Of a stretch of DNA of 64,000 bases, positions 55,476-57,788 are shown one piece after another. The notes below the pieces were generated by a model. That model saw only the letters and a program-made list of their open reading frames with translations, was not told the DNA's origin and made no database searches. The stretch spans positions 1-64,000 of the forward strand of contig JBNLAH010000007.1 of the NCBI GenBank assembly GCA_050302075.1. Reading direction: 5' to 3'. Source of the stretch: Parachlamydiales bacterium. GTDB lineage: Bacteria > Chlamydiota > Chlamydiia > Chlamydiales > SM23-39. The position numbers and the translations under genes were made by a program. How positions within the stretch are numbered: the stretch's first letter is position 1; every line of letters starts with the position of its first letter.

Positions 55476-56084
55476 TTACAAAGTTACCATCAAGCTGATA
55501 GCAATCCCCCACATCATTAAAGCAACCAAACTATCAATGACCCTCCATGAATTCGGCTTGGACAAAAAAGGAGCTAGAAGACGGCTTCCATAGGTAATGG
55601 TAAAAAACCAAATAAAAGAAGCGCTGATTGCACCTATAGTAAAGTAAATTTGGTTCTGGGGTGTTTGTTGCAAAGCAATACTTCCCAATAAAATCACCGT
55701 ATCTAAATAAACATGTGGATTGAGTAAACTTAATGCCAAGAGCAAAAAAAGCGTCTTTTTAGCAGAAATCAATCTTTTTTCTTGAGCTACTTGTAAACAT
55801 TTAGGACTCAAAGCGGACTTCAATGAAATGCCACCATAAAAGAGGAGAAAGATAACAGCAAAATACTTCGATAACTTAATACACAAAGGATAATGAGAAA
55901 TGAGTTGTCCAAAGCCTAGAACGCCCAAAAGGATTAATAGCGCATCGATTGATGAGCATAGAAGAGCTGTCAAAAGAAGATGACGCCGTAACAATCCTTG
56001 TCGAATGACAAAAGCATTTTGCGCCCCAATAGCTACAATTAATCCTGCACTGGTACTTAGACCCTTTATTAACGCTAAAAACAT
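55476..56084 (-). CDS. argO: LysE/ArgO family arginine/lysine exporter
   Basis: LIVAIGAQNAFVIRQGL, LNPHVYLDTV.LLG, SF.WF, W..ID. Confidence 0.9.
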   Translation of the reverse strand: MFLALIKGLSTSAGLIVAIGAQNAFVIRQGLLRRHLLLTALLCSSIDALLILLGVLGFGQLISHYPLCIKLSKYFAVIFLLFYGGISLKSALSPKCLQVAQEKRLISAKKTLFLLLALSLLNPHVYLDTVILLGSIALQQTPQNQIYFTIGAISASFIWFFTITYGSRLLAPFLSKPNSWRVIDSLVALMMWGIAISLMVTL

Positions 56085-56791
56085 ATTGAATGAGTATTTA
56101 AGTGTGTTTGAGGAGAAATTCGATTAAGAATTCCTGTTTCCAATGGTAAGCATTGGATTTTTGTTAAATTCTTCACCAACTGTGTTAAAGCAAACTGCAC
56201 TCTCTCATGATCAAAAGAATCGATAAAAAACAAAACATACTTGGAACTTTCGTCTATACATGTCTCGGCTGAATCTTTATGATTCCAAAGCCAGCATATA
56301 ATCCTCCCATCATCCGCATAGACAACATGATTAGATCGAGCTGTTATTTTTCCTCTCTCCCCTAAACCAAAAAAAGACTCTCCCTCCTTGGCATACCGGA
56401 TTGTAATCCCTCCTGAAACTTTTTTTAGATCATATCCTCCCATAGGCAATAAAGATAAAATCGAACAGCAATTATAAAGATCAACAATATTACAAATATT
56501 CCAAATTTTCTTACCAAAAATCACCCGCCGGAGCAGAGCCTCTATTGAAGAGCGATAAGTTTTAGCCTTCACTTGAAAATCTTCTTCATAAATCTTTCTC
56601 CATTGAGAAATGCTCGGATGAGTCACAAAATTGGTAGCATTGAAGCCTTGTTCTTGAAGATACTCCTCTAAAGATTCTTTTAGATCCTCTACAAAAAGAT
56701 CTCTCTTTTTTACAGAAACCTGAGCCACCAGATACCCGATTTCCATGTCCGGGTATTTTTCTAATACTTCATTTTCTATCTTAATCAGCAC
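56075..56791 (-). CDS. stand-alone B3/4 domain protein (PheRS-beta editing-like, CtdA-like)
   Basis: WR..Y...SSIEAL.RR, N.VDLYN..S...LPMGGYDL, VVYADD...C..WN; GTG start after GAGGT. Confidence 0.82.
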   Translation of the reverse strand: MLIKIENEVLEKYPDMEIGYLVAQVSVKKRDLFVEDLKESLEEYLQEQGFNATNFVTHPSISQWRKIYEEDFQVKAKTYRSSIEALLRRVIFGKKIWNICNIVDLYNCCSILSLLPMGGYDLKKVSGGITIRYAKEGESFFGLGERGKITARSNHVVYADDGRIICWLWNHKDSAETCIDESSKYVLFFIDSFDHERVQFALTQLVKNLTKIQCLPLETGILNRISPQTHLNTHSICF

Positions 56792-56850
56792 AAGTTACCT
56801 CTCTCTATACTGTTTTTAAAATCTATTTCTATTTTAACCTCAAGTTTGTT

Positions 56851-56894
56851 ATAAGTGAAATTAATAGATTTTATGATCGATTAATTTAATTAAT
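56851..56894. promoter_or_regulatory. candidate LysR (T-N11-A) boxes in the divergent promoter
   Basis: ATAAGTGAAATTAAT (56851-56865) and ATTAATTTAATTAAT (56880-56894); AT-rich context lowers specificity. Confidence 0.4.
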
Positions 56895-56903
56895 GAAAAT
56901 CCT

Positions 56904-57788
56904 ATGGACTATCGGGGAATAGAAGCATTATACACCGTCCTAGAACTGCAAAGCTTTGAATCTGCAGCCAAAAAGTTGCACATTACTCAATCAGCTATTT
57001 CACAAAGAATTAAAGGAGTGGAAACTCATTACGGGCAACCAGCCTTAATTAGGACTTTACCATATCGTCCTACTGATCTTGGAAAGCAGCTTATTGGGCA
57101 TTTTAAACAAATCTGCCTACTTGAAGAAGATTTAGAAAATCAAATCAAAAGAATAACCTCAACTCCTCGTATTTCCATCGCTTTAAACCGAGACAGTTTA
57201 GAAACTTGGTTTTTGGATTTGATCAAGGGAACTGAAGCTTTTAGAGATGTTTTTTTAGAAGTTGTCGCTGATGACCAAGAATTGACCTTAGACTATTTGA
57301 AAAACGGACTTGTATCTGCTTGTTTATCTACCTCTAAAAAAGAGATTCTAGGAGGACGGGTTCACTTTTTAGGAAATATGGAATATATACTTGTTGCATC
57401 TCCCTCATTTGTAAAAAAATTCTTTTCTAAGGGATCCCCTAAAGAGTGCTTACGTAATGCCCCGGCGATTAAGTTCGATCAAAATGATAAATTACACGAA
57501 AGATATCTTGAGAAGTTTTTTAATTTAGATGGGAGAGAATTAAATTATCATCTCATCCCCTCAGTAGCAGGTTTTAAAAAGCTTGCTCTTCTGGGATATG
57601 GTTATGCCTTGATTCCTAAAATCGATATTATAAATGAACTTAAGAGGAAACAATTACTACAGCTTTATAGCGACAAAGTTTGGGCAATACCTCTATATTG
57701 GCATTACTGGGCTGTTGAATCTAAATTCTATCAAAATTTCAATGCAGATGTGATAGAGCTCGCAATGAACAAGTTAAAAAAATATTGA
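56904..57788 (+). CDS. argP: LysR regulator, ArgP/LysG subfamily
   Basis: SFE.AA.KLHITQSAISQRIK..E...GQ, IA.N.DSL.TWF, DDQE.T, LYWH.W; divergent from the LysE gene. Confidence 0.9.
   Translation: MDYRGIEALYTVLELQSFESAAKKLHITQSAISQRIKGVETHYGQPALIRTLPYRPTDLGKQLIGHFKQICLLEEDLENQIKRITSTPRISIALNRDSLETWFLDLIKGTEAFRDVFLEVVADDQELTLDYLKNGLVSACLSTSKKEILGGRVHFLGNMEYILVASPSFVKKFFSKGSPKECLRNAPAIKFDQNDKLHERYLEKFFNLDGRELNYHLIPSVAGFKKLALLGYGYALIPKIDIINELKRKQLLQLYSDKVWAIPLYWHYWAVESKFYQNFNADVIELAMNKLKKY

Follow-up and report, generated by a model that had tools for sequence, protein, structure and literature searches.

In the 64,000-nt stretch of Parachlamydiales DNA analysed here (the window), a gene for an ArgP/LysG-family regulator stands divergent from a two-gene unit in which a stand-alone B3/4 gene, of the kind associated with tRNA editing, overlaps a gene for a LysE/ArgO-family exporter. 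The pairing of argP with B3/4, and the full triple, recur in other chlamydiae together with one conserved operator and promoter. The B3/4 protein has a CtdA-like fold and is placed outside the CtdA clade, in a subfamily that is found fused to lysyl-tRNA synthetase (LysRS). We read the locus as a candidate module for sensing, editing and exporting an analogue of a basic amino acid, with editing most likely on tRNA(Lys), and regard this reading as having about an even chance of being correct.

The argP-B3/4-lysE locus and its operator

Three genes make up the locus:

55476-56084, minus strand: LysE/ArgO-family exporter gene (202 aa; PF01810)
56075-56791, minus strand: stand-alone B3/4 gene (238 aa, GTG start; PF03483)
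56904-57788, plus strand: ArgP/LysG-family LysR-type regulator gene (294 aa; NF002964)

The stop codon of the B3/4 gene (TAG, 56077-56075) lies inside the lysE reading frame, whose ATG is at 56084-56082, giving an overlap of 10 nt, and the argP-B3/4 intergenic region measures 112 bp. The reading frames and their family matches agree with the layout given in a preliminary description made from the sequence alone: an exporter, an overlapping B3/4 gene and a divergent regulator. Its assignment of the regulator to the ArgP/LysG family holds as well, with scores above the curated cut-offs for both NF002964 (311 bits, cut-off 197) and TIGR03298 (303 bits, cut-off 273.55). The protein carries HTH_1 (PF00126) and LysR_substrate (PF03466) domains, it is encoded by the single ArgP-family gene of this genome, and its nearest solved structures are Rv1985c (3isp, E 6e-40) and LysG of C. 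glutamicum (6xtv, E 3e-32). The exporter matches the LysE family (PF01810, E 9.4e-34, 117 bits, cut-off 25.6); among NCBIfam models its best match is the L-lysine exporter TIGR00948, below cut-off at 179.3 bits (cut-off 213.65), and the ArgO model NF006801 is likewise below cut-off (158.5 bits, cut-off 298). Judged by family, its substrate is probably a basic amino acid or an analogue of one. The promoter and terminator scan predicted no minus-strand terminator downstream of 55476, that is, past lysE. We rejected the idea of a compositional island, since the GC content of the module (0.35-0.37) resembles that of its flanks.

Recurrence across loci also rejects chance adjacency of the three genes. 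Where the upstream flank is usable, argP is divergent from B3/4 and 87-152 bp upstream of it in 28 of 31 loci, the three exceptions (L040-L042) being N-terminally truncated copies. In a sample of 400 genomes from the phylum, 16 carry the B3/4 orthologue and 20 carry ArgP, and by coordinates the two genes are adjacent and divergent in 16/16 orthologue-bearing genomes, a set that overlaps the contig-derived loci and so is not independent of them. With at least 650 bp of downstream sequence available, an intact LysE follows B3/4 in 12 of 28 loci and remnants of it in 3 more; in the 12, the homologue aligns from residue 1 and lies directly downstream of B3/4, with gaps of -7 to +39 nt. The three-gene linkage, for which a neighbourhood survey had been proposed, is thus found elsewhere, and the triple is still present at 45% identity (L046, L045). 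LysE is missing from the other 13 of the 28 loci, which indicates that the unit can do without export. The distribution of the orthologue is patchy: among the 24 same-family genomes searched it was not found, the one weak match there being in a 795-aa, PheT-sized frame.

T-N11-A boxes between the divergent genes had also been reported. As a bare pattern these carry no weight as evidence and we rejected them, since the pattern occurs at chance level (6818 times in the whole window against 6968 expected); what does stand is one dyad that is conserved among aligned loci. When 19 argP/B3/4 intergenic regions were aligned, a single specific operator/promoter motif proved to be shared by 19/19 loci. 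Its elements are:

56871-56883, minus strand: T-N11-A dyad, predicted ArgP recognition site, consensus cTTATgaatcATAA (TTAT-N5-ATAA); columns invariant or nearly so in the 19 regions
56850-56865, minus strand: 16-nt box ATTAATTTTACTTATA, columns invariant or nearly invariant in the 19 regions; consensus ATTAATTT(C/T)ACTTATA, predicted activation site, which includes the -35 hexamer
56854-56859, minus strand: -35 hexamer TTCACT (promoter scan), within the 16-nt box
56831-56836, minus strand: -10 hexamer TAAAAT (promoter scan), 17 nt downstream of the -35 hexamer

The promoter scan thus reads TTCACT-17-TAAAAT on the minus strand (56859-56831), and the -10 columns T67, T68, A69, A71 and T73 are invariant in the 19 intergenic regions. 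The 16-nt box has a single exact copy in the 1.84-Mb genome and the lone site with one mismatch elsewhere equals the control rate, on which grounds we rejected a wider ArgP regulon in this genome. In different chlamydiae the conserved operator/promoter stands before B3/4-lysE, before B3/4 alone, or before lysE alone; in two that have lysE and no B3/4 gene (G039, G276), the 16-nt box is still upstream. Such sharing fits the earlier suggestion of one sensor driving both editing and export: the common operator is there, and ArgP is the predicted sensor, which would bind there and regulate the operon.

Relationship of the B3/4 protein to CtdA

The B3/4 protein matches PF03483 (B3_4) with E 2.4e-24 and, by sequence, the canavanyl-tRNA(Arg) deacylase CtdA (9f7e) with E 1.1e-10. 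When its structure model (pLDDT 95, pTM 0.91) was used to search with Foldseek, the two CtdA structures ranked first (9f7e_A, E 1e-16, TM 0.78/0.80; 9mkl_A, TM 0.79/0.83; 229-231 columns), and PheRS editing domains came next. In architecture the protein corresponds to CtdA, being free-standing, of about 230 aa, and with the CtdA-specific helical insert in its B3/4 fold. Sequence and structure therefore both support the earlier view of it as a CtdA homologue, and we predict that it is an aminoacyl-tRNA deacylase.

Correspondence at the pocket is partial. The pocket residues of CtdA, as given in the accessible text of PMC12449066, are N105, G116, E118, C166, Q173 (where E is tolerated) and I189. 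At these positions the chlamydial protein has N107, G118, Y120, C166, D173 and F189, so that three of six are kept and E118, Q173 and I189 are replaced by Y, D and F, respectively; the alignment of active-site residues that had been proposed as a check accordingly went against equivalence with CtdA. The pattern extends to the relatives of the 56075-56791 protein, here called the window-type subfamily and recognised by the signature GGYD / CWLWN[HY][KR]D / FF[ILV]D. The equivalents of N105, G116 and C166 are invariant or nearly so in this subfamily, and the replacements Y, D and F recur across all its rows, save four variants at the F189 column.

Phylogeny separates the two groups. Window-type sequences form a clade of 12 rows (support 100/100), and the CtdA anchor (L064, from Pantoea, E 1e-106 to 9f7e) lies in a clade of 13 rows (support 97/98) that excludes them and that takes in all ArgRS-linked B3/4 domains, whether fused to ArgRS (L061-L063) or adjacent to argS (L057). 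Joining the window clade to the CtdA clade costs 153.8 lnL and is rejected by the AU test (p-AU 5e-7), the group for this test having been defined with the tree already in view. Because the branch leading to the PheT outgroup is very long, the rooting of the tree is unsure.

Probable target tRNA and possible source of the analogue

All four window-type B3/4 domains that are fused to a synthetase (P0125, P0126, P0127 and L054) are fused to class II LysRS, two of them, P0125 and L054, being close kin in the tree. Each combines the signature GGYD / CWLWNYKD with a LysRS of the lysS_bact type, and the fused LysRS scores 638-681 bits against TIGR00499 in the two complete proteins scanned. Fusions of B3/4 to class I LysRS are also present (P0130, P0131). 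In the 400-genome sample, the long-frame matches are without exception housekeeping LysRS-B3/4 fusions (34/34), with 26 N-terminal and 8 C-terminal; fused LysRS forms occur in Simkania-type chlamydiae. Fusions are absent from all 16 genomes that have the stand-alone orthologue, and ArgP and the stand-alone gene are absent from all 34 LysRS-fusion genomes. This complementary distribution is suggestive only, since the domains fused to chlamydial LysRS belong to a CtdA-like group (signature GADD / C[KR]xWN[WY]RE) and not to the window-type subfamily. Furthermore, it is the aminoacyl moiety that CtdA reportedly selects (PMC12449066, accessible text), so the fusion partner of a domain need not fix the tRNA used by its free-standing relative.

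Under the reading we prefer, the ArgP/LysG regulator would switch the divergent operon on as a basic amino acid or an analogue builds up, and the B3/4 protein would deacylate tRNA carrying a basic amino acid that is not its cognate one, the most likely target being tRNA(Lys) that class II LysRS has mischarged. The LysE/ArgO-type exporter would then pump out the freed amino acid. The weakest step is the identity of the analogue, for which our best guess is a hydroxylated derivative of lysine or arginine, because genes for GntB-like hydroxylases adjoin members of the subfamily. Such genes lie directly upstream of window-type B3/4 in six loci (L028, L030, L044, L047, L053 and L080), and in L028 and L053 they are joined by GntC-like and cyclodeaminase-like genes, with LysE too. 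The scores of these neighbours (90-227 bits for GntB-like, 249-256 bits for GntC-like) are all below cut-off. This genome has a GntB-like gene of its own (L-arginine gamma-hydroxylase-like, 372.5 bits, cut-off 380), in an operon on another contig (C1, at about 325.1-326.0 kb). As a general partner of the chlamydial module the hydroxylase was rejected, since GntB-like genes occur in only 3 of the 400 genomes of the phylum and, of the 16 chlamydial genomes in which the orthologue occurs, 15 have none.

Neighbours that resemble arginine-modifying enzymes point toward an arginine-derived analogue, and raise the question of whether the protein is, after all, a CtdA-like enzyme that deacylates tRNA(Arg) bearing canavanine or gamma-hydroxyarginine from the bacterium's own GntB-like enzyme; the signal for ArgP would then be arginine or the analogue itself, and the exporter would correspond to ArgO. 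ArgP of E. coli answers to arginine and canavanine, CtdA is the closest solved relative in both sequence and fold, and two of the three GntB-bearing genomes carry window-type B3/4, the genome studied here having its own near-threshold gene. It is also pertinent that 3-hydroxyarginine can enter proteins at Arg codons and that a tRNA deacylase from a different family guards against this (PMC13149037, accessible text). Yet the protein lies outside the well-supported clade that holds CtdA and the ArgRS-linked domains, its pocket is changed at E118 and Q173 among others, and not one of the four window-type synthetase fusions is to ArgRS. These results speak against the CtdA-type canavanyl-tRNA(Arg) deacylase put forward in the preliminary description, and bear out its reservation that canavanine might not be the analogue. 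Neither argS nor canavanine-catabolism genes were found beside the module in any of the 28-plus chlamydial loci, nearly all orthologue-bearing genomes do without a GntB-like gene, and the exporter scores higher on the LysE model than on the ArgO model, both below cut-off. We therefore consider action on tRNA(Arg) rather unlikely.

Action outside translational proofreading seems to us improbable. Here the B3/4 protein would hydrolyse or bind a different aminoacyl ester or RNA; its target could be an aminoacyl-lipid, an aminoacyl-tRNA with a role other than translation or, were the protein secreted, the tRNA of the host. The place of the gene in the ArgP regulon would then reflect general homeostasis of basic amino acids. 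Fusions to ankyrin repeats, an architecture typical of secreted effectors, occur among relatives from the same subfamily, and their loci abound in eukaryote-like genes (U-box, WD40 and mitochondrial carriers, for example); half of the CtdA pocket is changed, and we found no activity described for the subfamily in the CtdA-related literature searched. All characterised members of the fold, namely PheRS B3/4 and CtdA, are however aminoacyl-tRNA deacylases as far as the accessible text of PMC12449066 goes, and the Asn, Gly and Cys important in CtdA are conserved. Repeated fusions to LysRS, together with one to a YbaK-type editing domain (P0123), likewise place the domain in tRNA editing.

Textbooks describe LysRS without an editing domain and, to our knowledge, pre-transfer editing is considered its sole means of proofreading; we found no paper in the open-access literature searched that pairs LysRS with a B3/B4 domain. 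Extending the reading of a tRNA(Lys)-directed module, we tentatively suggest, as a possibility more doubtful than probable, that in chlamydiae and other intracellular bacteria LysRS products undergo a post-transfer proofreading that has gone unrecognised, performed by CtdA-fold B3/4 domains that are either fused to LysRS (at either end, and in both classes) or free and switched by ArgP/LysG along with an exporter. The target would be a hydroxylated basic amino acid of the sort that GntB-like hydroxylases make, produced either by the bacterium or by competitors that share its host cell, and the locus would be the inducible resistance half of an antimetabolite contest. If the reading of the module holds, LysRS would gain a dedicated editing partner, and proofreading would be inducible, under the sensor that also governs efflux of the offending amino acid, a two-layer defence in place of constitutive editing. 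The recently described CtdA family would split into ArgRS-tied and LysRS-tied groups, with a pocket signature that tracks the split (E, D or Y at position 120; Q/E or D at position 173) and offers a way to study how specificity evolves. In intracellular bacteria, the GntB-like neighbours also mark out small putative clusters for the biosynthesis of basic non-canonical amino acids.

Comparison with known systems

The B3/4 domain of the PheRS beta subunit shares PF03483, the fold and the conserved Asn with the protein described here, but identity is only 12-16% (Foldseek) and the domain is part of a subunit of about 800 aa that edits Tyr-tRNA(Phe); PheT of this genome is a separate gene, on contig C6. 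CtdA, known from P. canavaninivorans (9f7e) and S. enterica (9mkl), is closer, being alike in fold, size and helical insert and in the kept equivalents of N105, G116 and C166. Identity over the structural alignment is nevertheless about 22%, and phmmer gives 44 bits for the B3/4 protein against 91-106 bits for ArgRS-linked domains. The fusion partners of the window-type subfamily are LysRS and not ArgRS, and the gene here lies beside an ArgP/LysG regulator and in one operon with an exporter, an arrangement of which we found no mention in the main texts of the CtdA papers.

A parallel of another kind is offered by BesG and FuzB, of the AlaX family, whose deacylase genes cluster with genes for the synthesis of a non-canonical amino acid that translation can use (PMC13149037, accessible text), much as window-type B3/4 in L028 and L053 lies beside GntB-, GntC- and cyclodeaminase-like genes and LysE. 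Those deacylases have a different fold, and the module in the window has a regulator and an exporter and no adjoining biosynthetic gene.

In its regulatory layout the locus resembles ArgP-argO of E. coli and LysG-lysE of C. glutamicum, where the regulator is likewise divergent from a LysE-family exporter and the operator is of the T-N11-A type; a plain ArgP-exporter pair of this sort, with the same motif as the B3/4 loci, is also present in the chlamydiae G039 and G276. In contrast to those systems, the exporter here reaches neither the LysE nor the ArgO equivalog cut-off, and a gene of tRNA-editing type comes first in an operon that is predicted to be ArgP-regulated. Across chlamydial loci B3/4 is also a more constant partner of argP (28/31) than is LysE (12/28).

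The argP-B3/4-lysE module and its operator

The module is real and conserved. Open reading frames and family matches bear out the three-gene layout proposed in the preliminary description, with the divergent regulator, the B3/4 gene and the exporter placed as follows:

55476-56084, minus strand: LysE-family exporter, 202 aa (PF01810, E 9.4e-34)
56075-56791, minus strand: stand-alone B3/4 protein, 238 aa, GTG start (PF03483, E 2.4e-24)
56904-57788, plus strand: ArgP/LysG regulator, 294 aa (NF002964, 311 bits against a cut-off of 197)

The end of the B3/4 gene overlaps the exporter frame by 10 nt. 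The best NCBIfam matches of the exporter are to an L-lysine exporter (179.3 bits, cut-off 213.65) and to ArgO (158.5 bits, cut-off 298), and since both fall below their cut-offs no substrate can be assigned to it. The same genome carries one ArgP-family gene and a second, RhtB-like LysE-family exporter; contig C1 has its class II lysS, which is unfused, and contig C6 a normal pheT. On the 508-bp contig C87, a fragment resembling class II LysRS (positions 2-445, 195 bits) may come from a second lysS gene, from fragmentation in the assembly or from a contaminant.

The linkage recurs well beyond this contig. Scans of one genome per species and of metagenomes returned 24 and 31 loci respectively (L numbers denote loci throughout), and linkage was counted over 33 tabulated loci in which the closest B3/4 segment shares 45% identity or more with that of the window. 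Of the 31 loci that include upstream sequence, 28 have a divergent argP upstream of the B3/4 gene; the other three are truncated copies. Where 650 bp or more of downstream sequence is available (28 loci), 12 have an intact lysE next, spaced -7 to +39 nt from the B3/4 gene, three have LysE remnants and 13 have unrelated genes (a GadC-like permease in L015); the full triple is still present at 45% identity (L045, L046). In a sample of 400 Chlamydiota genomes (G numbers denote genomes), ArgP occurs in 20 and the stand-alone B3/4 orthologue in 16, across eight families, and in all 16, which overlap the tabulated loci, argP and the B3/4 gene stand side by side in divergent orientation.

Decaying copies are also seen. 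B3/4 genes carry in-frame stops in L046:1379-2056 and G255:C1:1260800-1261492 and are in pieces in L056:184-868. Of LysE, only pieces of 28-37 aa are left in L012 (1569-1679) and L040-L042 (the L040 contig ends soon after), the last three also having a B3/4 without its first 58 residues and no ArgP. A divergent chlamydial paralogue (L005:1129-1944, genome G025; 31% identity) has Ser for Cys166 and VMD versus GYD in the pocket, and lies directly downstream of a 354-aa hydrophobic-rich ORF.

T-N11-A boxes between the genes, noted previously, carry no weight as a bare pattern, which occurs at chance level (6818 in the window against 6968 expected). Three blocks are conserved across 19 aligned argP/B3/4 intergenic regions:

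56831-56836: TAAAAT hexamer, 17 nt from the TTCACT embedded in the next block
56850-56865: box ATTAATTTTACTTATA, embedding TTCACT
56871-56883: dyad cTTATgaatcATAA

A promoter scan recovered the same -35/-10 pair (TTCACT/TAAAAT), and the ATTAATTTTACTTATA box occurs once in the genome. ArgP is predicted to bind there. Four ArgP genomes lack the B3/4 gene; contigs of three were examined, and in two argP is directly divergent from lysE with the same operator and promoter motif (L116:2490-4089 in G039; L117:1529-3432 in G276), while the third has ArgP only. In the fourth, G386, the ArgP match lies close to a contig start. L117 retains about 380 bp of non-coding DNA at the expected B3/4 position. 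One predicted promoter design thus serves B3/4-lysE, B3/4 alone or lysE alone.

CtdA, synthetase fusions and the predicted tRNA target

The closest solved relatives of the B3/4 protein by sequence are structures of CtdA, the canavanyl-tRNA(Arg) deacylase (9f7e, E 1.1e-10, then 9mkl). Its model (pLDDT 95) superposes on CtdA along almost the full length (TM 0.78-0.83), the next structural matches being PheRS editing domains. The CtdA pocket (PMC12449066) comprises N105, G116, E118, C166, Q173 and I189, to which N107, G118, Y120, C166, D173 and F189 correspond here. In this active-site comparison, which had been suggested earlier, N, G and C are kept and E118, Q173 and I189 are replaced by Y, D and F. 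A signature that we call window-type, GGYD / CWLWN[HY][KR]D / FF[ILV]D, is shared, with few exceptions, by all 12 of the chlamydial orthologues sampled and by every related protein.

B3/4 domains are also found joined to synthetases and other proteins:

L076-L079, L084-L113: chlamydial LysRS-B3/4 fusions, 34 genomes of the phylum sample
P0130, P0131: class I LysRS fusions, 792 and 804 aa
L061:1457-4195, L062:4001-6745, L063:4001-6715: B3/4-ArgRS fusions, 904-914 aa, three metagenome contigs
L057:515-1216 and L057:1255-2940: stand-alone B3/4 gene and, directly downstream, argS (metagenome locus)

In 34 of the 400 Chlamydiota genomes, B3/4 matches (24-39% identity) fall in frames of 559-818 aa, every one of which is a housekeeping class II LysRS, 59-72% identical to that of the window's own genome, with the B3/4 domain N-terminal in 26 and C-terminal in eight. 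Public records of these proteins (Simkania, Simkaniaceae, Neptunochlamydia and others) read only 'lysine--tRNA ligase', and searches of open-access literature turned up no relevant paper on a LysRS carrying a B3/B4 domain. Neither ArgP nor a stand-alone B3/4 was found in the 34 fusion genomes, nor a LysRS-B3/4 fusion in the 16 with the stand-alone gene. The fused domains belong to a CtdA-like group (D at position 120, E at 173), so this complementary distribution supports a LysRS link for the B3/4 family and is no proof for the window's subtype. Searching longer proteins (P numbers) yielded 11 fused relatives, namely three class II LysRS, the two class I LysRS, five ankyrin proteins and one with a YbaK-type editing domain; metagenome loci add a class II LysRS fusion (L054) and the ArgRS fusions.

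We read the module as one that would sense a basic amino-acid analogue, edit the mischarged tRNA and export the analogue. The earlier proposal was of a CtdA-type defence against canavanine or another arginine analogue. In a tree of 47 rows, one clade (support 97/98) contains the Pantoea anchor for CtdA (E 1e-106 to 9f7e), every ArgRS-linked domain, including the B3/4 of L057, and both the class I and the chlamydial LysRS fusions. Outside it lies the clade of the window's protein (100/100), with which group four window-type LysRS fusions together with ankyrin, YbaK, LysE-linked and ArgP-linked forms. Joining the window's clade with CtdA and the ArgRS-linked domains was rejected (p-AU 5e-7, for a group chosen after the tree was seen and with a long outgroup branch), which tells against the CtdA-type reading. 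We put tRNA(Lys) as the predicted edited species at about even chances, and regard editing of tRNA(Arg) charged with an arginine analogue as rather doubtful. A role outside editing altogether we judge improbable.

Other architectures accompany these. P0123 (576 aa) combines B3/4 with a YbaK-type tRNA_edit domain, a double editing protein. Window-type B3/4-ankyrin fusions (P0121, P0122, P0124, P0128, P0129; L044:3968-5452; L080:2035-3162, minus strand) occur in loci that also hold U-box, WD40 and mitochondrial-carrier genes, which are typical of Legionellales-like intracellular bacteria.

GntB-like neighbours and comparison with known guards

In guanitoxin synthesis, GntB hydroxylates L-arginine at the gamma position. 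Six loci have a GntB-like gene immediately upstream of a window-type B3/4 gene; these neighbours score 90-227 bits, short of the 380-bit cut-off. In two of the six, LysE, a cyclodeaminase-like gene and a GntC-like PLP enzyme are present as well. In the compact clusters L028:4029-9134 and L053:3036-7514, GntB-like hydroxylase, window-type B3/4 and LysE genes are convergent with cyclodeaminase-like and GntC-like PLP genes; each has the appearance of a small pathway, complete with a guard and a pump, for a non-canonical basic amino acid. The window's genome has a GntB-like gene too (372.5 bits, same cut-off), on contig C1 and not the window contig, in this operon:

Contig C1, about 323.8-328.5 kb (L083:9855-14532): GntB-like operon, also with a Cys/Met-family PLP enzyme and a 311-aa protein without family match

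The genes flanking it encode a mitochondrial carrier and a basic amino-acid/polyamine antiporter. GntB-like genes occur in three of the 400 Chlamydiota genomes, two of them with window-type B3/4. This context hints at a hydroxylated basic amino acid, and leaves the 15 orthologue-bearing genomes without a GntB-like gene unexplained.

The module is apparently new to the literature; a text search of the CtdA papers found no mention of an exporter, an ArgP-type regulator, an operon, gene neighbourhood, LysRS, fusions or chlamydiae, each paper being searched for some of these. A deacylase guard against a translatable hydroxy-amino acid does have a precedent, of another fold, in PMC13149037.
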